64,000 bases of DNA from assembly GCA_002478945.1 (NCBI GenBank), contig DLKM01000020.1:16335-80334 (forward strand), read 5' to 3'. This document shows positions 1 to 48,745 of the stretch, one piece after another. The position numbers and the translations under genes are program-made. Source of the DNA: Christensenella sp. UBA7588. GTDB lineage: Bacteria; Bacillota; Clostridia; Christensenellales; CAG-917. Within the stretch, counting starts at the first letter, position 1, and every line of letters starts with the position of its first letter. The notes beneath the pieces are model-generated. The model searched no databases. It was not told the DNA's origin and saw only the letters and a program-made list of their open reading frames with translations.

Positions 1-205
1 CGATGAACATAAGCATAATGAACAGCGGTTCGAGGTGGAAAATATCCGTATAGAATTTCTGCAACAGAGACGTTACCAAACCGAAAACGAGACAGCACGC
101 CGTATCGCCCATAGCGTAGCCGATGTAGTCTTTGGTTTTGAGTCCGCTCGTACGCGAAATAAAACTTTGTTCTGTCGCTTGCGCGACGTTTTGAGTATCG
201 CTCAT
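1..205 (-). CDS. GPH-family sugar (hexuronide/glycoside):cation symporter, N-terminal fragment running off the left edge
   Basis: Not in the ORF track because it is truncated. The reverse strand from ATG at 205-203 reads MSDTQNVAQATEQSFISRTSGLKTKDYIGYAMGDTACCLVFGLVTSLLQKFYTDIFHLEPLF. The IGYxxGD...FYTD pattern is typical of MelB/UidB-type transporters. It is the last gene of the uronate operon. Confidence 0.6.
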   Translation of the reverse strand, partial: MSDTQNVAQATEQSFISRTSGLKTKDYIGYAMGDTACCLVFGLVTSLLQKFYTDIFHLEPLFIMLMFI

Positions 206-21742: not shown

Positions 21743-22255
21743 ATGAAAACTATATTTGCAGTCGATAAAAAATGGGGATTGGGCAAAAACAACGATTTAC
21801 TGTTCAATCTAAAAGCCGATATGCGCCACTTCGTCGAAAATACGCGCGGTAAGGTCGTCGTAATGGGTAGCAATACCCTCTTGTCTTTCCCGGGCGGTAT
21901 GCCCCTCAAGAACCGCGTAAACATCGTTCTCAACCCAAACGGCGAGCAATCCGACGCCGACGCGAAAGGTTATGTGCTTGTCAAATCTCTCGACGAGCTG
22001 TTTAACGAGATAAAAAAATACGACGGCGACAACGTTTACGTAATCGGCGGAGCAATGATGTATCGCACGATGCTTCCCTACTGTGACACCGCAATCGTAA
22101 CGAAAGTCGACGCCGACGGCGACGCGCAAGTTTTCCACCAAAACCTCGACGAACTTCCCGACTGGCATCTGACTTCGCAAAGCGACCCCATCGACGACAA
22201 CGGCTACTCCATTCGTTTTTGCACCTACAAAAACGACAACGTAAAACCGTATTGA
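21743..22255 (+). CDS. folA: dihydrofolate reductase
   Basis: IFAVDKKWGLGKNNDLLFNLKADMRHF and VVVMGSNT motifs. thyA-folA pairing. Confidence 0.9.
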   Translation: MKTIFAVDKKWGLGKNNDLLFNLKADMRHFVENTRGKVVVMGSNTLLSFPGGMPLKNRVNIVLNPNGEQSDADAKGYVLVKSLDELFNEIKKYDGDNVYVIGGAMMYRTMLPYCDTAIVTKVDADGDAQVFHQNLDELPDWHLTSQSDPIDDNGYSIRFCTYKNDNVKPY

Positions 22256-22293
22256 CATCTTTCCCTTACCGATTTTTAATTCATCTTATAAAT

Positions 22294-22321
22294 AAAAGGC
22301 ACTCGAACAAGTGCCTTTTTA
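22294..22321 (+). terminator. rho-independent terminator after folA
   Basis: AAAAGGCAC-tcgaacaa-GTGCCTTTTT. Confidence 0.8.
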
Positions 22322-22579
22322 AATATTAAATATTGACATACCAAGGCATTATATGTTATCGTAAAAATAAAAGAACCCTCTAAGAGAGCTCATTTACTAG
22401 CGAACATATCGCCTAATCTTTTGCTGTGACTCAAGAATGTCACATACGATGACACTTACTTACAAAGCAAGGTGGTCATCGTCACAATGAGAACCTGATA
22501 ATTGTCGCCTCAGCCTCAATGCTATAACAAGTTTTTCATATACTTACAAAGTTTATATGTTACTTGCTTATATAGTATA

Positions 22580-24163
22580 TTATTTTCTTGTTATTTTGTC
22601 AAACGTTTTTTCACAAGAATTTGTATTTTTAAAAAGAAGTCTATTTTTAGCCATTTTAATACTCAGACATGTCCAAAGAATAACACCGATATTTACTGCA
22701 AGTAGTAACGGAAAAACTATAGCGTTTACCACCTTGTCGTTTTTGCTCAACTCTTCAAATCTTATCATATGATTTAAATAACCGACAATAATGTTTATTG
22801 CCGTTGTAACAGAAAAAGCAAAGAGTATTTTGTTTCTGTTTTTTTCTCTTGAAGTACGAGCATAATTTTGTAACGGAGTAATCGAATCCACATATTCGTT
22901 GAGCAGCTTATTGATTTCAAATCTTTCTCTTAAGTAGTCATATATAGTCTCGACATCTGTTTTATTAGAAATGCTTTCAAAAACATACCTGCGTCTAAAG
23001 TTGGTATAATTAATCTCCTCTTGCCTCAATCTACACCTCAAGAACCGAGAACGAGAGAACGAATGTGCGCTATCGATTTTCATCAACTCGTTAGATAAAG
23101 AACTAAGCGCGTATTTTTGATGTAATACAAAGATGAGACAAAACCACGCAGCTTGGTCATTAATCTCCCATCTGTATGAACCGACTCTAATTAATGAATT
23201 AGACTCCGCAAATATGTATTTTGTCGCCTTTTTGCTATTGTTATATATCAAAAACTTGTCTCCGCAATATAAAGGTTGTCCATCCGTTACGGTTGCTTGG
23301 CGTATACTTTTCCCAAAATAAAATTTACTACTGTTTGCAAGTTTTATCGTAATGTAAGAAAATGGTTTTTTATCAAAAAAATCACAAAACTCGTCCTCAT
23401 TTTCATAAATTCCTTCGCTGCATCGCAAGAAAATCTTCTTTGTTACATCACATAACCATTCAAAATTCATTCTTGAGCGTATTCCGTCACAGAATTTAAC
23501 GATAAGGTCGTCGGCAACGTTAATTGTATGCCAATTAAATCTATACTTCCATTCAAAAAAACCTATTCCGGATTCAAACAGGTACAAATGCGCTTCTTCA
23601 AATTCTATTTCTAAAAACTCTTTGGCAGTTCCTTTAGGCACTTTTTCCAAAAGCATTTTATTGAGCGCATTCACCGATTCTTCATCTAACATTGATAAGT
23701 CAAATCTAAACAAACCGAACATAATAGTATTCGGCGTCTTATTCGTATTATCAAATATATCTACGATTTCAGTATGCATACGGGCATTGAGATTTATGAA
23801 AACCTCTTCGTTTTTAACATTGTTACTACGCGCACCTACGGTATTCTGTTGTTTGATAATACCATCAATATTCGAAAAATTACTGTAAATATTGTTGAAT
23901 TTTTGAGGCTCGACGTAGAATTTGAAAGGGAACACTAGCCTAACGTGATGATATTGAGCATCTACACGCCTGCAATCTAAATCGTTATTTTTTGTTCCTT
24001 CGCCGTTTGCCTCTTGAGATTGCTTAGCATCCTGACTTTCTTGTTCTTCGTTGAGTATTTGAATAATGTCAGCCGATATTACTTTTGATAGATTTTCCTT
24101 AGGACATTCTTTTGTAATTTTGACTTGCTTTGTTGATTCTTTGATTTTAGTTTTATTTCGCAT
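22580..24163 (-). CDS. CorA-like two-TM membrane protein with large unknown N-terminal cytoplasmic domain
   Basis: C-terminus NRNKILFAFSVTTAINIIVGYLNHMIRFEEL ... VVNAIVFPLLLAVNIGVILWTCL parallels the CorA TM1-(Y)GMN-loop-TM2 layout, with GMN degenerated to LNHM. It is preceded by long helical segments. Confidence 0.4.
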   Translation of the reverse strand: MRNKTKIKESTKQVKITKECPKENLSKVISADIIQILNEEQESQDAKQSQEANGEGTKNNDLDCRRVDAQYHHVRLVFPFKFYVEPQKFNNIYSNFSNIDGIIKQQNTVGARSNNVKNEEVFINLNARMHTEIVDIFDNTNKTPNTIMFGLFRFDLSMLDEESVNALNKMLLEKVPKGTAKEFLEIEFEEAHLYLFESGIGFFEWKYRFNWHTINVADDLIVKFCDGIRSRMNFEWLCDVTKKIFLRCSEGIYENEDEFCDFFDKKPFSYITIKLANSSKFYFGKSIRQATVTDGQPLYCGDKFLIYNNSKKATKYIFAESNSLIRVGSYRWEINDQAAWFCLIFVLHQKYALSSLSNELMKIDSAHSFSRSRFLRCRLRQEEINYTNFRRRYVFESISNKTDVETIYDYLRERFEINKLLNEYVDSITPLQNYARTSREKNRNKILFAFSVTTAINIIVGYLNHMIRFEELSKNDKVVNAIVFPLLLAVNIGVILWTCLSIKMAKNRLLFKNTNSCEKTFDKITRK

Positions 24164-26286: not shown

Positions 26287-26844
26287 TTACGATTGAGTTT
26301 TTGTGACATCGTTTAATAACTTTTTAATTTTTTTTATTGCTCGACTATGCTTCTTCCTTATTGTAGCAGGATTGATTCCTATTATTCGAGATATTTCGAC
26401 TTGATTATAACCCTCCCAATAAAAAAGTTTCAAAATGCGTTGAGAAACATCATCCAGTTGTCTAATCGCATAAAGTATATCCCCCGTCCATACCTCTTCG
26501 ATTTCACATTTCGCATCAAACGAATCCACATCTGAAAGGACATATTTAGATTCACAACTAATCTTTCTTTTAGCGATATTTTCACAACAAGCATAAACCC
26601 AAGCGGTAGGATACGAAACGAACCCCTGCTTTTCGGAAACAGTAATTAGTTTTATAAAAAACTCTTGCGCAATATCCCTCGATAGTTCGTACCCGTATAA
26701 ATTCTCAAAGTGATGAATAATTCTGCTATAATAAAAATCATATAGTTTTTCGATTGATTCATCACTTTCTTTTATATTGCGAAGATGGTAGTTAAATTCT
26801 ACAGGGTTCATAAACTTTCCTAACACACTTATATGGCTTTTCAT
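26287..26844 (-). CDS. ECF-type sigma-70 family RNA polymerase sigma factor
   Basis: Region 2 (DIAQEFFIKL...PTAWVYACCENIAKRK) and region 4 HTH (LFYWEGYNQVEISRIIGINPATIRKKHSRAIKKIK). The start could instead be Met12. Confidence 0.75.
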   Translation of the reverse strand: MKSHISVLGKFMNPVEFNYHLRNIKESDESIEKLYDFYYSRIIHHFENLYGYELSRDIAQEFFIKLITVSEKQGFVSYPTAWVYACCENIAKRKISCESKYVLSDVDSFDAKCEIEEVWTGDILYAIRQLDDVSQRILKLFYWEGYNQVEISRIIGINPATIRKKHSRAIKKIKKLLNDVTKTQS

Positions 26845-26928
26845 TTGCGGGGTACAAATTAAAACGTAATTATTTTAACACAGACATCGAAAATAGTAAA
26901 TGGGAGATTATTTATTTGTAAAATTTTA

Positions 26929-27069
26929 CGCGGTCTACGCTTCGCAAACGGCGTTTCACGCCTTTATGCTGCGCGCTTGCGACTCTCTTCACTTGCGGTC
27001 AGTCGGACTATGCAGTCCGAACAATGCAACGCATTGTTGTGCGCAATGCTTGCGCACAAATTCAAGTAT
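26929..27069. repeat. GC-rich hairpin repeat, copy A (short form)
   Basis: The 89-nt block 26981-27069 matches 29071-29159 with 8 mismatches by hand alignment. It contains three adjacent hairpins (27003-27020, 27021-27037, 27038-27058). Relative to copy B it lacks about 57 nt. Confidence 0.8.
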
Positions 27070-27089
27070 CGGGAACCGAACGGCAAAAT

Positions 27090-27121
27090 AAAAAGCACGG
27101 ATAAATCCGTGCTTATTTTTG
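27090..27121. terminator. bidirectional rho-independent terminator (ends the RNase III/peptide operon on the minus strand)
   Basis: AAGCACGG-ataaat-CCGTGCTT with A-rich 5' and T-rich 3' flanks. Confidence 0.75.
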
Positions 27122-27258
27122 TGTGTGCCAATACCTATTTGATACATTTTGCGTACATCTCTTAAAAAGCGCGTACAGTTTGTTCAAAATACGTACAGCA
27201 GAACTATTATGTTTTATTGTTATTATTCTCTGTTATTGCAAGTGTTATTTGCTATCAA

Positions 27259-27423
27259 CTACTTCTTGTGTCCTTGATAGTTCTTATTGTTTGGATTGCA
27301 TTGGTTAGAGCGGTTATTTTGATTAGCTCTATATGCCGAATTGTTAGGATTGTTTTGATTCGAATAATTGTTTATCTGCTGTTGCGTATGTGTTTTGCCG
27401 CTAACGCCATTTTGTTTACTCAT
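27259..27423 (-). CDS. 54-aa Asn/Gln-rich peptide with tandem SNQxNPNNxxY motif, translationally coupled to RNase III
   Basis: The ATG at 27423 overlaps the RNase III stop (ATGAGTAA), with a GGAGG 7 nt upstream. MSKQNGVSGKTHTQQQINNYSNQNNPNNSAYRANQNNRSNQCNPNNKNYQGHKK has 16 N and 8 Q of 54 residues. Confidence 0.6.
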   Translation of the reverse strand: MSKQNGVSGKTHTQQQINNYSNQNNPNNSAYRANQNNRSNQCNPNNKNYQGHKK

Positions 27424-28246
27424 TGACGTCTTCCTCCTTGAATTCATCAGGTATCCCGTAGTAATCGCAAAGGACTAAGTAGGCGGCATACCTTTTGGCT
27501 TCCTTCTTTGAAGTAGCGAGCCCAGTGTGGTACATAGACCAGCTTCTGATGTGGCATGTGCAAGACCACCAATATTTGCCATTTTGATACACCTGTTCCT
27601 CAGGAATATCATATTCAGGTACCGAGCATCTTCCGTGTTCCGCCAGCTCCTTTAGTGTGGTGACCGCATTTTCAAGTTTGAATTTATCTGGTCTTTCTTC
27701 TTCGGTGTCTACATCTTGTAAGAAATCTTCGATTTGTAGCATAAATTCAACAGAGTTTTGCAACTCATCAGGGTTCCAGTCGCTATCGATTGCAATCGCG
27801 CCTAGTATCGCCTCAAATAAATCAGCTTTGACTTTTTCTTGCTTTTCAACATGGTTATCGATATCGCTATCGCCCATATACATGTATTTTGCAAAGCCAA
27901 GTCTGTCTATTCTTTTAGCCAATGTCTTATTGGATACAATTTCTTTTTTCAGTTCGGTAAAATCCGCTTCATCCTTATGAGCTACAATGCAATATTCATC
28001 GTTGTCGTTCTCTTCGTCGTAATAATCTGATTGAGATTTTACGAAGCCGAATCTATCAGAGATAACTTTTACAACATAAAAATCCAAAACCTTATCGCCT
28101 AGAAATTCTAAAACCTCGTTATTCTCTCCACCGTATTGCGTAGAATAAGAGCTTCTTGTGAACGCTTGAAGCAATAGGTCGGTATTATTGAACCAGTAGC
28201 CAATTTTCTTTTGCACTTCGTCTAAATGATCGTTTAAGTTTTGCAT
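27416..28246 (-). CDS. ribonuclease III family protein (island-encoded, non-housekeeping context)
   Basis: RNase III signature NEVLEFLGDKVLD and second catalytic segment KADLFEAILGAIAIDS. C-terminal dsRBD-like ...LATSKKEAKRYAAYLVL. AGGAGGA RBS. Confidence 0.8.
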   Translation of the reverse strand: MQNLNDHLDEVQKKIGYWFNNTDLLLQAFTRSSYSTQYGGENNEVLEFLGDKVLDFYVVKVISDRFGFVKSQSDYYDEENDNDEYCIVAHKDEADFTELKKEIVSNKTLAKRIDRLGFAKYMYMGDSDIDNHVEKQEKVKADLFEAILGAIAIDSDWNPDELQNSVEFMLQIEDFLQDVDTEEERPDKFKLENAVTTLKELAEHGRCSVPEYDIPEEQVYQNGKYWWSCTCHIRSWSMYHTGLATSKKEAKRYAAYLVLCDYYGIPDEFKEEDVNE

Positions 28247-28269
28247 TTGTGTTTCCTCCTAAATGTATA

Positions 28270-28472
28270 TTTCTGTCCTAAGGAAACAAAAAAGACCTTC
28301 TACCGACAGGGTAAACTCCTCCTAACCAGAGTCCTCCCATGCAAAGGTCTAATTTAATCAAAACAATTTTTGTAAGATTTTCTACTTGATGCCTCCCGCT
28401 TGCAAAAGGCATTAAACAGATCACATTACTCAACTCCTTTGAGGAAACTAATCCTTCCTTTTCGGACAGAAA
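28270..28472 (-). promoter_or_regulatory. ~200-nt structured 5' leader of the RNase III gene with an internal terminator-like hairpin
   Basis: Closing helix TTTCTGTCC (28472-28464) / GGACAGAAA (28278-28270), extended by AAGGAA/TTCCTT. Internal hairpins CTCAA-AGGAG-TTGAG and ATGCCT-N12-AGGCAT. AGACCTT...AAGGTCT+TTTTTTG at 28350-28286. Four SD-like GGAG(G) copies. Confidence 0.5.
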
Positions 28473-28473
28473 A

Positions 28474-28502
28474 AGTATACCACAAATCTCCTATAAAATC
28501 AA
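28474..28502 (-). promoter_or_regulatory. candidate extended -10 promoter for the RNase III leader
   Basis: On the minus strand: TTGATT (28502-28497), 17 nt, TGgTATACT (28482-28474). It abuts the leader closing helix, so the true 5' end is uncertain. Confidence 0.4.
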
Positions 28503-28513
28503 TCGCTTGGCAA

Positions 28514-28558
28514 TAAAAAAACAGCCCACTACTCATCATTTCTGACTTTCATGGGCTC
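28514..28558 (-). terminator. candidate terminator (large-loop hairpin plus U7)
   Basis: On the minus strand: GAGCCCAT...GTGGGCT followed by GTTTTTTTATTG. The loop is about 21 nt, so this is only moderate quality. Confidence 0.4.
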
Positions 28559-28561
28559 ATA

Positions 28562-28771
28562 TTATTTTTCCTTCATCTTTATCTTTATTATTTCTTCCCG
28601 AGTATTTTCCCACATTTTTTCAAAATCAAAAACTGCAATATAATTTAATAAGTAATAGTTTTTTCTAAAAAATGAAAACAGCGCCAATCGTTCCGTAGCA
28701 CTATCTATCGTCCCGATGATAAGGCTTTCGTTCCGTAGCAATATACAAAAAGAGCCTCGTAAAAATGCCAT
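28562..28771 (-). CDS. hypothetical 69-aa ORF (doubtful)
   Basis: ATG start but no convincing RBS and no recognisable domain. The only support is the hairpin/U-run downstream. Confidence 0.2.
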   Translation of the reverse strand: MAFLRGSFCILLRNESLIIGTIDSATERLALFSFFRKNYYLLNYIAVFDFEKMWENTREEIIKIKMKEK

Positions 28772-28879
28772 TTGACACTTCTACAAGGCTCTGTAATTTG
28801 CTGGCGGAAAGGATAAATGCTCCTATCCGCAAAGAAAAAAGGCTTGATAACATTTGTATCAAACCTATGCTTTTCTTAT

Positions 28880-29159
28880 GGTGCGGTCACCGAGACTTGT
28901 AGCGAACAAAGTGAGCGTAATAGCGAGCGGCGTAAGTTTACTGACCGTAGCGAGCGTCTCCATAAGATAAACGGTGTTTCACGCCTTTATGCTACGCAAT
29001 AAAACACTTCGTATTAAGTTTGTCTTATTATGTCCACTGCGCTCGATTTCCGCAAATGATACGCGTTTGCGGCTCGCTTCACTTGCGGTCAGTCGGACGG
29101 TGCCGTCCGAACAATGCAATGCATTGTTGTGCGCAATTCTTGCGCACAAGTTCAAGTAT
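28880..29159. repeat. GC-rich hairpin repeat, copy B (long form)
   Basis: Shares ACGG(C/T)GTTTCACGCCTTTATGCT(G/A)CGC and the 89-nt triple-hairpin block with copy A. Its middle part (29000-29083) matches copy C (29258-29341) at about 80% by eye. Confidence 0.8.
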
Positions 29160-29206
29160 TAGAGCTTAATTCTTTAACAGAAAATACAAATATTCGGACT
29201 TAATGT

Positions 29207-29372
29207 GGTGCGGTCTATGCTGCGCAAATGGCGCATCCGCGCCTGCGTGCAGTCGCACGCAACACTTCGTTTTTTATTTGCTTGCTATGTCCACTACGCT
29301 CGATGGCCGCAAATGCTACGCGCTTGCGTCTCTCTTCGCTTGTGGTCACCGAAGTCTCGGCACCCTGCACAC
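29207..29372. repeat. GC-rich hairpin repeat, copy C (divergent)
   Basis: Starts GGTGCGGTCTATGCTGCGCAAATGGCGCA (compare copy A 26929-26958) and carries its own short GC hairpins, e.g. GCGTGC-agtc-GCACGC. It is directly tandem to copy B. Confidence 0.7.
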
Positions 29373-29412
29373 AAAAAAAGTGAGCACAGACAATTCTGTA
29401 CTCACTTTTTTG
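29373..29412. terminator. bidirectional rho-independent terminator (ends fic on the minus strand)
   Basis: AAAAAAAGTGAGCACAG-acaatt-CTGTACTCACTTTTTTG. Confidence 0.8.
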
Positions 29413-29547
29413 TTGGTGCGCAGAAAACAACCGCAGTTGAACATATCATTTTACTATCAAATTATGCAGTTCATGTTTTTGGACTACACAACTACCGAGC
29501 ATTAGTCCCGCAACCGTATGTTGTAACAATGAGAATATAAGAGAATA

Positions 29548-30405
29548 TCACTCATCTACTTGCTCGTAATAATAAGAGTAGTCGATTCCTTTCATGAAGA
29601 TTTCGCGATTGTTTATATCGTTGGTCAATGCACCTTTTATAAGTTCGTAAATATGCGATGAATCCACAGGACTTTCCTGCATTGCCGTAAGGTAAGCCTT
29701 TTTGTCGATTTTGCTCCAATCAACGCACTTTTTTAGATGCTTTTTCAAAATCAAATCAAGCCAAATACGCGTACTTCTGCCATTACCTTCCATAAACGGA
29801 TGCGCAACGTTCATCTCGACGTATTTGTCTACGATTTGTTCAAGCGTATCGTCGGGCATATTCTCAATTTGGCGCAAATTTTCTTGCAAATACATTGCCG
29901 GCGCAAACGCAAAACCGCCCTTTGCTATATTCATTGTGCGGATTTGTCCTGCAAAATCATACAGTCCACCGAAAATATACGCGTGTATTTGTTGCAAGCC
30001 TTTTACTGTGCCGACTTCGATTTCGTTTATCATACCCGACTCGAACAATTCGTACGCTTTTTTCTTGCTTTTATCATCAATTGACGATCCCATTCCCTTC
30101 AACCACTTCTCGAACACGAGTGATTTTTTGCTAGGAATAAGTGCAATAATGGTATTTACACCCTCTTCATCAACGACGTCAGTCATATATTTTTTGCCGT
30201 CGGAAGCGGTCAATTTCAGTTGTCGACAAATTGTCGACAACTCGCCTTTTCTACGTTTGAGAGCGTTCCAATATGAGCGCGGATTTGTGCTTTTTGTGAG
30301 TGCTTCCGCAATATCCGTAGCGCAAAACCACCATTTGGAAGTATCTTCATCCCAAACGGCTCTTACGGGTATATCTTCAAAAAAACGAATCGACGTTTTG
30401 ATCAC
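29548..30405 (-). CDS. BRO-N domain / Fic (AMPylase-type) fusion protein
   Basis: N-terminus [29 protein letters not shown] is BRO-N/antirepressor-like. The canonical Fic motif [12 protein letters not shown] lies at 29802-29767. The C-terminal [10 protein letters not shown] resembles a class III inhibitory helix. GTG start with an AAGGA RBS. Confidence 0.75.
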
Positions 30406-36798: not shown

Positions 36799-37113
36799 AT
36801 GGCAAATTATTATAGAATTACCGCATATCACAAAGAAAAAGACATCTCAATTATTATGGACTCATACGGACATTTTGAAAAGAAGTGGCAGTTTTCTGCC
36901 GACCTTATTCGTAGGGGCTTTGACATTATCGAAGTATCCGACGATACGCAATTCCTTGACGGAAACATAGAGCGATTGACCATGCCCAAACAAGACAAAC
37001 TTACTCTTAGGGCTTGTTCAATGGGAAAACCTTCAAGAATTACTCAATCGGTAGGAAACGAACAACGCAACGCAATACAAGTAAACGACAAAATTTATGT
37101 GCCATACACATAA
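36799..37113 (+). CDS. conserved-looking hypothetical protein (104 aa), last gene of the plus-strand operon
   Basis: ATG at 36799 after AAAGGAG. MANYYRITAYHKEKDISIIMDSYGHFEKKWQF... has no assignable domain. Confidence 0.5.
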   Translation: MANYYRITAYHKEKDISIIMDSYGHFEKKWQFSADLIRRGFDIIEVSDDTQFLDGNIERLTMPKQDKLTLRACSMGKPSRITQSVGNEQRNAIQVNDKIYVPYT

Positions 37114-37281
37114 GAATAGCCGTGCATAGAGAAAACGAAGATAAAGGAAAAAGTCTTACTGCTTTAATTACGATACAGATTTTGGTTGCACTTCCGCATA
37201 TTATCAGTTCTTAAAGCGTGAAAATAACATTTAATTTTAACACACAAAGTAATCATAAAGATACATATATGCTGTCAACCT

Positions 37282-37317
37282 AAAAAGAGAGAAACGGACT
37301 TCGCTTCTCTCTTTTTT
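37282..37317. terminator. strong bidirectional rho-independent terminator at the right island edge
   Basis: AAGAGAGAA-acggacttcgc-TTCTCTCTT followed by TTTT. Lies between the convergent island operon and rhaD. Confidence 0.8.
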
Positions 37318-37405
37318 GATTTTATAAAATGCACTTATAAAGGTAATTCTATTATTTTTCCCAAACTATATTTAGGCAATACGCCGTTGCTTTGGATATG
37401 TTCGC

Positions 37406-38218
37406 TTATTTTCCCAAGATTCCGTCAAGCGGTGTAAGATGCCACAAATCAACGAGTCCTTGCAATACGTCATCGCCGATTTCGTTGACGACGTGTCCCA
37501 ATGTGAGAATATATAGTTGTGCCGTTTTCTCAACAGTTTCAATAAGTCCGAAGGCTTCGTCAATGTCTTTGCCAACGCCGTAAATGCCGTGATTCGTCCA
37601 TACGACAAGACGATATTTCTTCATCTTCTCTGCCGTCGCCTCACCGATTTCGTTCGTTCCGCAAACCATACAAGGCAACACGCCTACACCGTCCGGGAAC
37701 ACCACGATTGCTTCGGTGTTGTTGCGCCACAACTTTTCGGTAAACACTCTGTCGTCTGTTTTTACGACTGCCGACATACAAATCGTATAAGTCGGGTGTG
37801 TGTGCATAACGACTCTGTGATTGGGATCTATTTTCAAACGAGTTGCGTGCGTCATAAGGTGCGCGGGAAGTTCACTCGTGAATTTTCCGCCGTCCTTATA
37901 TCCCCACAAAAGTTCTGCCGTTTTGCCGTCTGCGCCGATACGGATTATACCGAGATTGGTTTCGGGATCGCCTTCAACATTCTTGAAATACTTGCCCGTT
38001 CCCGTCACGATAAAATATCTGCCGACCAACTCTTTTGCATCGAATCCGGTCGGGATAACGCGCAATACCTTGTCAGTATCGAGATACTCTTTCACTTGTT
38101 CTTCGTCGAGCAATACGGAAACATTTCCGCCGTTTCTCTCGTCCCAGCCTTGACGATACATATTGCTCGTAATTTTGCAAAGTTCTTTTACAAACGGTGC
38201 TTCAAGTATGTTTTTCAT
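37406..38218 (-). CDS. rhaD: rhamnulose-1-phosphate aldolase
   Basis: Class II aldolase motifs (GWDERNGGNVS, HTHPT). ATGA overlap with rhaA. Confidence 0.85.
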   Translation of the reverse strand: MKNILEAPFVKELCKITSNMYRQGWDERNGGNVSVLLDEEQVKEYLDTDKVLRVIPTGFDAKELVGRYFIVTGTGKYFKNVEGDPETNLGIIRIGADGKTAELLWGYKDGGKFTSELPAHLMTHATRLKIDPNHRVVMHTHPTYTICMSAVVKTDDRVFTEKLWRNNTEAIVVFPDGVGVLPCMVCGTNEIGEATAEKMKKYRLVVWTNHGIYGVGKDIDEAFGLIETVEKTAQLYILTLGHVVNEIGDDVLQGLVDLWHLTPLDGILGK

Positions 38219-46790: not shown

Positions 46791-47864
46791 TCAGTCTTGT
46801 TTGCTCGGCAAGCACTCAACAAGCACTGCTTTCGTATCGGATACGATGCTATATTTGCCTTCCGCAACATAAGGAAGATAAAAATAATCACCGCGTTTTA
46901 TATCTCTCTTGTAATTTTCGCCGACGATTTGCGCATTGCCTTCAAGGCAGATATACACTGCCGGCGCGTAACTCATAACGAAACTTCCGCCGTCCTGAAC
47001 GGTATGGCGCACTTCCGCAAAGCAAGGCGTATCGTCATAGCCGATAAGCACTTCTTTTTTGTATTTGTCCGTATCGACGACGGTCTTCGGCGATACTTTT
47101 GCGTATGCCTTTGCCGCGTCGCCGTATATGTCGTAATTGATTGCGTCGAGTGCGACGTCCTTATCGAGTCCGATGTATTCTTCGTTGTAACTGATGTGAT
47201 AATCACCGCACCAACGTTCGGGTTGAATGGTGAAATCCGTCGGCTCTTGCACTTCTATAATCGTGCAACCTGCGCCTATTGCGTGGATAAGTCCCGCGCG
47301 GATAAGCCACAAATCGCCCACTTGCACTTCTACACCCGCAAGAAGGTTGCCCATTATGTCTTTTTCCACTTCACTGCGTTCTTCGAGCGCGGACAATTCT
47401 TCTTTCGTGATTTTGTCTTTGAATCCGAAATAGAGTTTCGCGCCCGGACGAGTTGCAATCACGAGCCACGCTTCCGTCTTTCCATATTCCGAGTTGAAAT
47501 ATTTTCTCGAAAAGTCTTTCGTCGGGTGTACTTGGAACGGCAATCTCGTTGCGCTGTCCAAAAACTTGACGAGACAATCGTATTTACGGTCGCCCAAAAG
47601 TTCTTCTTTATGTTCGTTGAGCAAATCGTCAAAGAACAAATCCGTGCCTTTTACGACGGATACGCCGTCACGCTTTCCAAAATACTTTGGATTGATTGCT
47701 CTTACCTTGCTTGCAACCCATTCTTCGGGGAACATATTGTCCGTTCCATCATCGAAACCGTCCGCAAAAATCTCTTTGAACGGTTTGCCCCCGTGATAGA
47801 TACGATACACTCTGTTGCGTTCAAAAAATATAGGTTGCGACACTATGCTTTTAATATCGTTCAT
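46791..47864 (-). CDS. class I mannose-6-phosphate isomerase-like cupin
   Basis: LPFQVHP and GKTEAWLV metal-site motifs. ATGA overlap with the upstream kinase gene. Confidence 0.7.
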   Translation of the reverse strand: MNDIKSIVSQPIFFERNRVYRIYHGGKPFKEIFADGFDDGTDNMFPEEWVASKVRAINPKYFGKRDGVSVVKGTDLFFDDLLNEHKEELLGDRKYDCLVKFLDSATRLPFQVHPTKDFSRKYFNSEYGKTEAWLVIATRPGAKLYFGFKDKITKEELSALEERSEVEKDIMGNLLAGVEVQVGDLWLIRAGLIHAIGAGCTIIEVQEPTDFTIQPERWCGDYHISYNEEYIGLDKDVALDAINYDIYGDAAKAYAKVSPKTVVDTDKYKKEVLIGYDDTPCFAEVRHTVQDGGSFVMSYAPAVYICLEGNAQIVGENYKRDIKRGDYFYLPYVAEGKYSIVSDTKAVLVECLPSKQD

Positions 47865-48745
47865 AATTGTATTGCTCCGTAAAATTCTGTGGCTTTTGCG
47901 CCCTTGACATTGCCTTTCATTGCAGCATTATCAAGATTTTCTTTTGTCATTTCTTTGCCTTCTATTGCCGCAAGGAATGCGCCGAAAAACGCGTCCCCTG
48001 CACCTGTTGTATCCACGCATTTGCAACCGCTTATGCTCGGCACAACGCCTTTGATACCGTTGTAATAATACGCGCTACCGTCTTTTCCGAGAGTTACGAG
48101 CAACAATCTGTCTTTAACGTACAACGATTCTGCCGCCTTGTCCATATCTTGTATGCCCGTGTAATCGGCAAGTTCGTCTTCGGAAAACTTGATTATGTCC
48201 GCACACTCGACAAACGGCGCATACGCCTTTTTAGCGTCCTCGAAATCGCGATAAATATCTTTGCGGAAATTCATATCAAAACTGAGTTTTGCGTCTAAAT
48301 CTTTGGCTTTTTTCGCAACCTTTTTGGCAAACTTTCTGCCCGTTTCTTCCGAAAGCATAAGCGAGCCGAGATGCAAAATACTCAAATCTTCGTATTTATC
48401 GAAGTCTATTTCGTCCAAGTCGATATTGAAGTCTGCCGTATCGTGACGATTGAACGCAAAATCGCGCTCGCCGTCCGTAAGCGTAACGAAAGCAATCGTC
48501 GTATTGCGCTCATCGTCCGTTTGAATGTCAAGATAATCCAAATTCGCCTTTTGTGCTTCCGCAGTAACGAAACGCCCGATAACGTCGTTTCCCACGCGTC
48601 CGACAAAACCGACTTTTGCCCCGCTTTGCTTTGCGTTGACTGCGAGATTGAACGGCGCACCGCCACAAAACGCTTTGAATGTGGTTACACCGTCCGTTTT
48701 TTCGCCAATCATATCGGCAAGTATTTCTCCGATAGACAAAATCAT
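47861..48745 (-). CDS. PfkB-family carbohydrate kinase (fructokinase-like)
   Basis: MILSIGEILADMIG start (ATG at 48745, AAGGAG RBS) and the DTTGAGDAFFGAFL motif. Confidence 0.8.
   Translation of the reverse strand: MILSIGEILADMIGEKTDGVTTFKAFCGGAPFNLAVNAKQSGAKVGFVGRVGNDVIGRFVTAEAQKANLDYLDIQTDDERNTTIAFVTLTDGERDFAFNRHDTADFNIDLDEIDFDKYEDLSILHLGSLMLSEETGRKFAKKVAKKAKDLDAKLSFDMNFRKDIYRDFEDAKKAYAPFVECADIIKFSEDELADYTGIQDMDKAAESLYVKDRLLLVTLGKDGSAYYYNGIKGVVPSISGCKCVDTTGAGDAFFGAFLAAIEGKEMTKENLDNAAMKGNVKGAKATEFYGAIQL

Follow-up and report, generated by a model that had tools for sequence, protein, structure and literature searches.

GC-rich hairpin repeats beside an RNase III gene of Christensenella resemble gene-less units found 3' of tRNA genes in gut Clostridia

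What are the GC-rich, hairpin-forming repeats that lie on either side of an RNase III-like gene in Christensenella sp. UBA7588, and do they belong to that gene? The window, by which we mean the whole 64-kb stretch of DNA that was analysed, carries one such repeat (copy A) on one side of the gene and a tandem pair (copies B and C) on the other. A first-pass annotation, made from the sequence alone, had proposed that the three form a family, and all three are present where it placed them. A repeat search of the window aligned 26966-27069 with 29056-29159 (104 nt, 89%) and 29024-29091 with 29281-29348 (68 nt, 84%), and blastn and a covariance model of the hairpin block agreed on these three copies only. 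The repeats are GC-richer (0.43-0.47) than the DNA around them (0.30-0.37), as had been noted. The 89-nt block shared by A and B indeed differs at exactly 8 positions, of the kinds originally listed; its three abutting hairpins are all present and perfect, and the compensated change, G:C to T:A, is found at the loop-closing pair of hairpin 1. The segment that A lacks relative to B is likewise real, but it measures ~67 nt by MAFFT alignment rather than the ~57 nt first estimated. We observed that the predicted folding energy of copy A was well below that of shuffles on both strands (z = -4.3 and -5.2), and that of B+C was far below it on either strand (z = -7.8 and -8.2).

Table 1. Features of the repeats and their neighbours (positions are those of the window; L numbers denote loci compared)
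Feature	Position	Strand	Remarks
Copy A distal end, CGCGGTC	26929..26935	-	decayed tRNA acceptor 3' strand relic (GACCGCg on minus strand)
hpA', small perfect hairpin GGCGT-ttc-ACGCC	26950..26962	.	also in B, 28973-28985
Copy A hairpin block	27003..27058	.	hairpin 1 27003-27020, hairpin 2 27021-27037, hairpin 3 27038-27058
Decayed sense copy of tRNA T-loop, T-stem 3' strand and acceptor 3' strand	27059..27081	+	AATTCAAGTATCGGGAACCGAAC versus tRNA GTTCAAGTCTCGGTGACCGCAC
T1, bidirectional intrinsic terminator	27084..27123	.	called at 27093-27114 on both strands
RNase III module	27202..28468	-	RNase III-like gene, small ORF and leader; Pfam; homology limits in L023-L025
RNase III-like gene	27416-28246	-	Pfam
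Small Asn/Gln-rich ORF of RNase III module	27259-27447	-	
Old terminator after displaced tRNA 3' end	28840..28866	-	called on minus strand (28866 to 28840)
Copy B start TGGTGCGGTCACCGAGACTTG, displaced tRNA 3' end	28879..28899	-	last 21 nt (C56 to CCA) of tRNA-Leu(GAG)
Module X, TAGCGAAC...GAGCGTAATAGCGAGCGG...GTAGCGAGCG	28900..28958	.	internal hairpin and conserved motif CGCTATTACG (minus strand)
Modules Ystart (hairpin 28973-28985) and Y	28966..29088	.	also in copy C and in L002/L004/L009/L006
Copy B hairpin block	29093..29148	.	hairpin 1 29093-29110, hairpin 2 29111-29127, hairpin 3 29128-29148
Copy C start TGGTGCGGTC	29206..29215	-	tRNA last 10 nt; displaced 3' end, type-2 junction
Copy C body	29216..29373	.	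hairpins GGCGC-atcc-GCGCC (29230-29243; counterpart of hpA') and TGCGTGC-agtc-GCACGCA (29244-29261)
Y copy within copy C body	29261-29348		
Decayed inverted tRNA-end copy in copy C, GGTCACCGAAGTCTCGGCACCCTGCAC	29344-29371		
T2, bidirectional terminator	29374..29411	.	17-bp inverted repeat flanked by A- and T-runs
Junction J TGGTGCGCAGAAAACAACCGCAGTTGAACATA	29412..29445	-	occupies expected place of tRNA body

Relatives of the copies exist elsewhere, which bears out the suggestion of a true repeat family, and they are found next to tRNA genes. In gut Clostridia, 1-4 units of about 200 nt, built of the same modules, lie immediately 3' of tRNA-Leu(GAG), with module maps that read tRNA-Leu(GAG) followed by T1-H-X or T2-Y-Cstart units, H being the hairpin block (L001, L002, L004, L005, L008, L009 and L026-L029). 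Such units are gene-less and 170-420 nt long. Each has a terminator, the tRNA's T-arm and acceptor 3' strand in inverted copy and split by two perfect hairpins, the CGCTATTACG motif, and a displaced tRNA 3' end. Intact tRNAs were called by ARAGORN beside the units in L001, L002, L004-L009 and L026-L029, and no tRNA gene was found in the window itself (64 kb). The window nevertheless retains the distal tRNA-end copy, at the start of copy B, identical at 21 of 21 positions to the tRNA-Leu(GAG) 3' end in L001 and L005 and followed by a terminator of its own. Since fragments of tRNA-Leu account for about 21+18+20 nt of each unit, the caveat of the first-pass annotation that the repeats might be fragments of a known gene holds in part. 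Hairpin 1 and the bases past hairpin 3 are also tRNA-derived; hairpin 1 of copy A, TCGGACT-atgc-AGTCCGA, is a piece of the tRNA variable arm and T-stem joined to its own inverse.

Other elements of the window have counterparts beside the tRNA genes of the relatives as well. The GGTC|TACGCT junction at the distal end of copy A is the same as that at the start of copy C, and the corresponding TGGTGCGGTC|TACGCT junction adjoins intact tRNA-Leu(GAG) units in L002/L004/L026. T1, which in relatives is the terminator immediately 3' of tRNA-Leu(GAG), ends the RNase III-peptide operon in the window, and next to it comes GTGTGTGCC, in which a tRNA 3' end survives in decayed form; T2, located immediately 3' of tRNA-Leu(GAG) in L002/L004, ends the Bro-N/Fic gene here. 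Both of these and the old terminator have the GC-rich stem and T-run of an intrinsic terminator, and a mismatch in T2, C.A on the plus strand, reads as G.U on the opposite strand. The hairpin block of copy B is followed by a decayed T-loop copy (GTTCAAGTAT), the sequence GTAGCGA occurs 3 times in module X, and the same 33 nt found in junction J come after T1 in L002, L003 and L004, with differing cargo beyond.

The architecture recurs at four to five tRNAs. There are homologous units after tRNA-Leu(CAG) (L007/L018), Lys(CTT) (L002) and Arg(ACG) (L006/L017), and in each case the arms match the unit's own tRNA, with inverted copies of 8-23 nt of its 3' half at +41..57 and +85..103 and an exact 21-nt direct copy from C56 at +168..+382. 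In Leu-GAG arrays the direct repeat of the tRNA end is 10-12 nt plus decayed remainders; Leu-TAG has weaker inverted copies only, and lacks the direct repeat; and no inverted or direct tRNA-end copies of this layout were seen at tRNA-Gly-GCC or Arg-CCT. In every case compared, the X motif GCGTAATAGC adjoins the T-loop break and the hairpin pair interrupts the inverted T-loop. Folding predicted that inverted copy, terminator and tRNA end form one long hairpin in all four contexts. Perfect stems amount to 27-45 bp per unit versus about 1 bp in shuffles.

The stems of the hairpin block are conserved. Variable columns made up 2 of 46 in stems versus 8 of 10 in loops (Fisher p = 1.3e-6), every stem pair in the 13 distinct copies is Watson-Crick, with no G.T or G.U, and units at other tRNAs have hairpins that differ in sequence yet remain perfect. 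It had been proposed that the changes between A and B reflect selection on structure. With invariant stems and hypervariable loops, this stands as regards maintenance of the stems; the single compensated pair on which the proposal drew is not statistically meaningful. Covariation, a test of which had been recommended at the time, was not significant by itself: 22 of 23 pairs are invariant across the 13 copies, and 75 of 500 shuffles do equally well.

Units are gained and lost between near-identical strains. Comparison of L026/L028 with L027/L029 revealed, at the tRNA end of the array, a difference of one complete 210-nt unit, bounded by a 16-nt direct repeat, TTTTGGTGGTGCGGTC, and with a tRNA side 99.8% identical; unit number also varies by assembly, being 3.5 in L001 and 1.5 in L008. 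Homologous recombination between direct repeats could be an alternative source of both the 210-nt indel and the change in copy number. Among the loci examined, none of the units enclosed a gene, and we did not find the 21-nt junction as a pair of empty and filled sites.

With moderate confidence, we regard the repeats as remnants of insertion units that carry no genes and are sited at tRNA 3' ends; their main function now would be to supply terminators. Copies A, B and C would represent two stranded fragments, read on the minus strand from 27128 to 26929 and from 29445 to 28835, both derived from a non-coding array that normally lies immediately 3' of tRNA-Leu(GAG) in these gut Clostridia. Read in the direction of the tRNA, such a unit opens with a 3' end that replaces that of the tRNA and with an intrinsic terminator. 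Next come the tRNA's T-stem 3' strand and acceptor strand in inverted copy and, beyond two perfect GC-rich hairpins, the T-stem 5' strand, likewise inverted. A further hairpin and the motif CGCTATTACG precede the displaced original tRNA 3' end, which starts exactly at T-loop position 56 (21 nt) or, in a second unit type, at the acceptor stem (10 nt). The units may be CIME-like miniature integrative elements without genes, which would insert and excise through recombination at the 3' end of the tRNA under the action of a putative recombinase supplied in trans, the palindromes and tRNA-derived arms providing a putative DNA recognition structure. In the window, the tRNA body would have been lost and cargo (Fic; RNase III and peptide) would have taken its place. 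We infer from these comparisons that the units act on DNA, through site-specific recombination, and that the window copies are inactive; the latter are decayed and most probably inert, and their sole present role is likely to be that of bidirectional terminators, T1 and T2, between neighbouring modules. An origin as recombination site or mobile element, one of several options offered by the first-pass annotation, fits better than chance. Two observations sit less well with such an origin. By inspection, the unit sequence to the left of the T-loop break is unlike the tRNA's own half-site; and the simplest model leaves the inverted copies unexplained, because a classical double-stranded attP has no need of inverted copies of its target.

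The search for a recombinase gave no consistent linkage to the units across the loci compared, and there was none among the scanned island ORFs of the window. One tyrosine recombinase, of 309 aa, is encoded 230 nt away from a unit in L003 and L010-13, and close relatives of it, 85%-identical ones among them, occur without units (L014-16, L019-22); members of this family normally follow a rolling-circle Rep gene or a serine recombinase, with neither units nor tRNAs nearby. In viral contigs, patterns for the hairpin block and for module X had no match, nor was there a match in the plasmid collection; the phage collection yielded only two 'UNVERIFIED Bacteriophage sp.' faecal scaffolds, which carry tRNA genes and appear bacterial. 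The island ends (22240-22600 and 37080-37420) contained no tRNA relics.

What the inverted copies are for is addressed directly by a second explanation, in which the unit is a folded single-strand recombination site like integron attC or the attP of CTX phage. On one DNA strand, the antisense tRNA end would pair with the inverted copy, and hairpin 1 with itself, to produce a duplex mimic of the T-arm region, with module X and the hairpin pair bulging out where crossover takes place. A tyrosine recombinase of the Xer/IntI type would then swap a single strand at the border R1|X, the insertion being completed by replication. This would account for inverted copies that match each unit's own tRNA, for a junction placed exactly at the border between antisense tRNA end and X, for the uniformly Watson-Crick stems, and for the continued mobility of a gene-less 200-nt unit. 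The whole unit is also predicted to fold as one closed, branched rod, and the recombinase of L003 and L010 is short and gave no match to an arm-binding domain. Yet the units at tRNA-Arg and tRNA-Lys have a weak hairpin 1 or none, although it would have to supply the second 'box', the bulges are much bigger than those of attC or CTX attP, and no recombinase is consistently linked. That the units are new gene-less mobile elements of this kind, whose folded strand rebuilds the T-arm duplex of the target and whose arms are re-templated at each new tRNA, seems to us unlikely.

It is also conceivable, though we consider it distinctly unlikely, that no dedicated enzyme is involved and that the arrays arise as a side effect of palindromic DNA at the terminators of tRNA genes. 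In that case, template switching at the hairpin of the terminator would generate inverted tRNA-end copies and keep the arms perfect, unequal crossing-over at direct repeats would alter the number of units, and ordinary recombination would spread the modules. The near-perfect palindrome (~45 bp per arm) that is made up of inverted copy, terminator and tRNA end is of the kind required; the stems are perfect, and the lone 'compensatory' change is at a loop-closing pair, as palindrome correction predicts. Moreover, L001 and L005 share old, diverged internal junctions between identical unit bodies, which fits amplification by crossing-over. It is hard to see, however, how independent replication errors would place the X motif and the hairpin pair at the same T-loop break in four tRNAs of different sequence, or would split the inverted T-loop with two hairpins in all cases.

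The stable folds (z of -4 to -8) and the combination of variable loops with invariant stems would suit a structured RNA, and the plus strands of A (~190 nt, to T1) and of B+C (~530 nt, to T2) each end in an intrinsic terminator that is usable on that strand, with a promoter-like site at 28844-28871 and a predicted start at ~28879. They might then encode sRNAs, perhaps decoys that resemble a tRNA or substrates of RNase III. Rfam gave no match at the gathering threshold in the whole window, and a permissive scan of 26500-29800 gave no match covering the hairpin blocks, its other matches being on T1, T2 or between the repeats; two weak ones (19-23 bits, E about 1, far below gathering) ran from hairpin 2 or 3 of copy A into T1. 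Both strands fold equally well, G.U pairs are missing from the hairpin-block copies, promoter-like sites are no commoner than in shuffles, terminators are destroyed in internal array units, the window copies have lost their partner arms for pairing, and minus-strand genes use the same terminators. The sRNA option, which had been raised earlier, is thus unsupported, and we think it very improbable.

Finally, although A and B/C flank the RNase III gene in the same orientation, it is scarcely credible that they are recombination or processing sites bounding a mobile RNase III cassette, because three other, unrelated contexts carry the module at 79-97% nucleotide identity and none of the repeats, and because unrelated DNA (80 nt and 410 nt) separates its homology-defined ends in the window, at about 27202/27234 and 28468, from A and B. 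As judged by these alignments, the RNase III module is independent of the repeat family, and the earlier assignment of the repeats to an RNase III cassette has to be abandoned. We also discarded a coding reading: the ORFs across the units are spurious, with protein identity (65-87%) not above DNA identity and matches to only 3 database 'proteins'. On inspection, a group II intron start (GTGCG), a retron, a hammerhead-type guide, an IS110 bridge RNA and IS200/IS605 ends gained no support, for want of the defining protein or motifs.

If the repeats are tRNA-less leftovers of units sited after tRNA genes, they would be neither RNA genes nor boundary sites belonging to the RNase III gene, and a false lead for this window is removed; the island would be a patchwork that acquired pieces from downstream of tRNA-Leu, which now serve as terminators. 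The units would also account for the breaks of metagenome assemblies at these tRNA genes. Were they actively mobile, they would offer a minimal system in which to study target change by site-specific elements, and if the single-strand explanation were true, the arrays that follow tRNA genes in gut Clostridia would amount to arrays of cassettes, with growth at the tRNA.

The closest known counterparts are the att-site relics and CIMEs that arise from tandem accretion of ICEs and IMEs at tRNA genes (reviewed by Guedon and co-workers, PMC5704250). As outlined in the respective reports, related cases are the tandem islands of Dehalococcoides, in which ssrA 3' ends are repeated (PMC3146451), and the tycheposon arrays (bioRxiv 10.1101/2020.12.28.424599). 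As in CIMEs, direct repeats of the tRNA-gene 3' end bracket each of our units and the inner copy restores the tRNA, integrases are absent, older and decayed copies lie farther out in the arrays, and the window island is a mosaic of such pieces. The present units differ in being cargo-free and ~200 nt in size, yet conserved, in carrying the T-arm of the target in inverted copies that two hairpins interrupt, and in that one unit family fits at least 4 different tRNAs. Among T-loop class sites, ICEBs1 reportedly uses a 17-bp T-arm attB in a tRNA-Leu gene. Our units resemble that case in targeting a tRNA-Leu gene of a Firmicute and in their 21-nt identity block, which extends from T-loop to CCA end, whereas they have no adjacent integrase or excisionase and no matching half-site on the unit side.

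The units share with integron attC and the folded attP of CTX phage imperfect palindromes of which one strand can rebuild a duplex recombination site, growth of arrays at one fixed end, and structure that is kept more than sequence; but their bulged arms are very large and their target is a tRNA gene. Unlike attC, the block has no flanking RYYYAAC/GTTRRRY cores (inspection), IntI was not found in the scanned island ORFs, the ends of the RNase III module do not coincide with repeats, and neighbouring gene modules are not bounded by units. The BIME/REP elements of enterobacteria and the BOX and SPRITE elements of pneumococci are likewise non-coding, strain-variable assemblies of mix-and-match hairpin modules, some of them terminator-like (SPRITE), but the present units are tied to tRNA 3' ends and partly tRNA-templated, and amount to 3 copies in the 64-kb window. 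Tiny, hairpin-rich and strain-variable units that carry inverted copies of their target at several tRNA 3' ends in human-gut Clostridia are, apparently, an undescribed family.

We observed by a repeat search of the window that the 3 hairpin copies described in the first-pass annotation, A on one side of the RNase III gene and B and C on the other, are indeed related: positions 26966-27069 align with 29056-29159 (104 nt, 89%), 29024-29091 with 29281-29348 (68 nt, 84%) and 26946-26974 with 28969-28997 (93%). Searches of the whole window by blastn with A and with B plus C, and with a covariance model built from the hairpin block, added no further copy. The blocks are GC-rich, as had been claimed (GC 0.43-0.47 vs 0.30-0.37 in flanking sequence), and the 89-nt block shared by A and B contains exactly the 8 differences, of the kinds originally listed. 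Compared with B, copy A is short of about 67 nt, where the first-pass annotation had put about 57 nt. Relative to shuffled sequences, both copy A (z -4.3/-5.2 for the 2 strands) and copies B and C (z -7.8/-8.2) were predicted to be strongly folded. No Rfam family reached its gathering score, and a permissive scan gave only two matches touching the repeats, both weak (19-23 bits, E ~1) and extending from copy A hairpins 2-3 into terminator T1.

A genome collection and metagenomes were each scanned once with the hairpin 2/3 core as query, which yielded five loci, and more loci were added through protein look-ups. In L001, L002, L004, L005, L008, L009 and L026-L029, the block directly adjoins the 3' end of tRNA-Leu(GAG), on the opposite strand. 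By comparison with this tRNA, much of the hairpin "repeat" is tRNA sequence, as detailed in the table. Remnants of a tRNA 3' end also lie behind T1 (GTGTGTGCC) and behind T2 (TGGTGCG); ARAGORN found no tRNA gene in the window.

Features of the repeat region and their relation to tRNA-Leu(GAG)
Feature	Coordinates	Sequence	Orientation to tRNA	Description
Copy A	26929-27069			GC-rich hairpin repeat
Copies B and C	28880-29372			GC-rich hairpin repeats
T1	27084-27123			bidirectional terminator
T2	29374-29411			bidirectional terminator
Start of copy B	28879-28899		antisense	21/21 identity to last 21 nt of tRNA-Leu(GAG), T-loop position 56 to CCA
Hairpin 1		TCGGACGGTGCCGTCCGA		tRNA variable-arm/T-stem piece fused to its own inverse
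Bases 3' of hairpin 3		GTTCAAGTnTCGGTGACCGCAC in best-preserved copies	sense	T-loop, T-stem 3' strand, acceptor 3' strand
Start of copy C		TGGTGCGGTC		shorter tRNA relic
Start of copy A		CGCGGTC		shorter tRNA relic
Junction J	window 29412-29445 (-); L002 2890-2919; L003 5629-5658; L004 609-638	TGGTGCGCAGAAAGCAACCGCAGTTGAACACATC		33 nt

Module mapping resolved two types of unit, which are given here in the direction of the tRNA. Type 1 consists of tRNA-CCA, T1, an inverted copy of the tRNA end, hairpins 3, 2 and 1, module X' and a displaced tRNA end beginning at C56; type 2 consists of tRNA-CCA, T2 or another terminator, a decayed inverted copy, module Y, two hairpins, ...AGCGTA and the displaced GACCGCACCA. 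Window copy B is a type-1 unit with Y inside and its terminator lost, and copy C is a type-2 unit; a complete "tRNA-downstream array" can therefore be read on the minus strand, from 29445 to 28835, and it takes in an old terminator (28866 to 28840) behind the displaced tRNA end. Copy A is a hybrid, type 2 at its distal end and type 1 at its proximal end. The tRNA body of the window array is replaced by J and a Bro-N/Fic gene. The C.A mismatch that T2 has on the plus strand reads as G.U on the minus strand; T2 should therefore be the better terminator in the minus-strand (Fic/tRNA) direction. The old minus-strand terminator is overlapped by a plus-strand promoter-like site (TTGATA-16-TATGCT, 28844-28871), whose predicted transcription start is the first base of copy B; such sites were no commoner in the repeat region than in shuffled sequences.

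Contrary to the suggestion that they bound an RNase III cassette, A and B/C are not the ends of the RNase III module, because its DNA (window ~27202/27234-28468) recurs in unrelated contexts that lack the repeats: at 97% in L023, beside two serine recombinases, and at 79% in L024/L025, between crtO-like and groES genes, upstream of groES-groEL. The RNase III-like protein (Pfam) has >1,300 relatives, many ~80% identical and including some from Bacilli MAGs, and its gene, a small Asn/Gln-rich ORF and a leader form a widely spread module (27202-28468). The island itself is flanked by thyA-folA and a class II aldolase gene, with no recombinase among the ORFs scanned, and the right part of the island, with ArdA, PcfK/MutS-I and PcfJ, has a homologue in L003. 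In that locus, a type-1 unit and J separate the homologous ArdA/PcfK/PcfJ segment from a tyrosine recombinase-SNF2-DUF4391-methylase block. This block, conserved in L003 (144-5203) and L010-L016, encodes a 309-aa tyrosine recombinase, an SNF2 helicase, DUF4391 and an N6/N4 methyltransferase, and resembles a defence island. Elsewhere among the relatives, the 309-aa recombinase lies behind a rolling-circle Rep (REP_ORF2-G2P) and ahead of HIRAN-UvrD genes.

In the window, L002, L003 and L004, J was always found behind the unit terminator, at the expected place of the tRNA, while the cargo past it varied (Fic, GNAT/PfkB genes, or a 355-aa ORF). Its start resembles a tRNA 3' end and it finishes in TTGAAC, which is like a T-loop, but a tRNA end would be 5 nt shorter. 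The window also carries a PfkB-family kinase gene (47849-48745) whose DNA is 92-93% identical to L004 771-1667 and L002 1861-2757, where it is placed between two convergent tRNA-Leu genes with units; by this identity, these relatives are close to the window organism, probably within a genus.

Comparison of strains revealed turnover of units. The 66-aa neighbour gene of L026/L028 is identical in L027/L029, and on the tRNA side the identity is 99.8%, yet the two pairs are set apart by a single complete type-2 unit of 210 nt, inserted precisely between the tRNA and T1 and with the 16-nt repeat TTTTGGTGGTGCGGTC at its borders. In two assemblies under the name Butyrivibrio crossotus, the type-1 units number 3.5 and 1.5. 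Several short-read contigs terminate at tRNA-Leu(GAG), as a repeat would predict; many such contigs (L030-L035) stop in, or just past, the gene, which suggests that unit arrays break metagenome assemblies.

A systematic scan of every tRNA in the collected loci extended the pattern beyond Leu-GAG, to few independent cases, one for each tRNA, with that of Leu-TAG weak. Parts of the tRNA's own 3' half recur inverted, as stretches of 8-23 nt, at +41..57 and +85..103 of Leu-GAG, Leu-CAG, Lys-CTT and Arg-ACG; the last three also have an exact direct copy of 21 nt from C56, at +168..+382, and the Leu-GAG direct copies are of 10-12 nt. Leu-TAG had weaker inverted copies and no direct copy, and the scan detected neither kind at Arg-CCT or at tRNA-Gly-GCC, which lies inside an operon. 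Two perfect hairpins sit between the two inverted arms in each case, with sequences that vary by tRNA (ACAATGC/TGTGCGCAA; GACAATGC/GCACAC; TTGCAAC/CCACGC; GTTGC/GCGTGC), and each unit ends in a homologous motif (CGCTCGCTATTACGC, CGCTCTCTATTACGG, TTCGCTATTACGC) and ...CTA immediately before the displaced C56. Stems that are perfect over 6 bp or more add up to 27-45 bp per unit vs ~1 bp in shuffled sequences, and the inverted copy, terminator and tRNA end were predicted to form one long hairpin in 4/4 contexts. Since this layout recurs while the arms match their own tRNA, the conserved modules are, as judged from their sequences, homologous across tRNAs and the arms specific to the adjoining one. 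The longer Arg-ACG unit of L006/L017 (MT835493.1) holds a separate repeat of ~110 nt (1572-1681), with 6 copies in that record and others in six further faecal "Bacteriophage sp." scaffolds; the UNVERIFIED records of this name that bear tRNA genes and units look bacterial.

When 13 distinct copies were compared across the Leu-GAG hairpin block, 22/23 base pairs were invariant. At the pair that closes the loop of hairpin 1, 11 copies have G:C, window copy A has T:A and L002b has a broken pair (T.C). The compensatory T-A/G-C change noted previously is the only one and is not statistically significant, being matched by 75/500 shuffles. Loops of all three hairpins are hypervariable (hairpins 2 and 3 with 7 loop alleles apiece), and variable columns are concentrated there (8/10 in loops vs 2/46 in stems; Fisher p = 1.3e-6). 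Because no G.T pair occurs in the stems of the 13 copies and the block folds equally well on either strand, the stem data fit DNA palindromes at least as well as RNA.

The unit break coincides with the T-loop position used by T-loop-class integrases. Taken together, the evidence best supports reading the units as gene-less insertion units located at tRNA 3' ends, such as are left behind, like CIMEs, when integrative elements accrete in tandem and decay (PMC5704250). The window copies would then be decayed relics that a mosaic island has taken up; in that island, T1 and T2 would now terminate the RNase III-peptide and Fic transcription units. However, insertion units of this kind leave the inverted, tRNA-matched arms unexplained. 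Those arms may be made and maintained with no dedicated enzyme, by palindrome-driven template switching and crossing-over. Alternatively, the arms may let a single DNA strand fold into a duplex mimic of the target, in the manner of integron attC and CTX attP.
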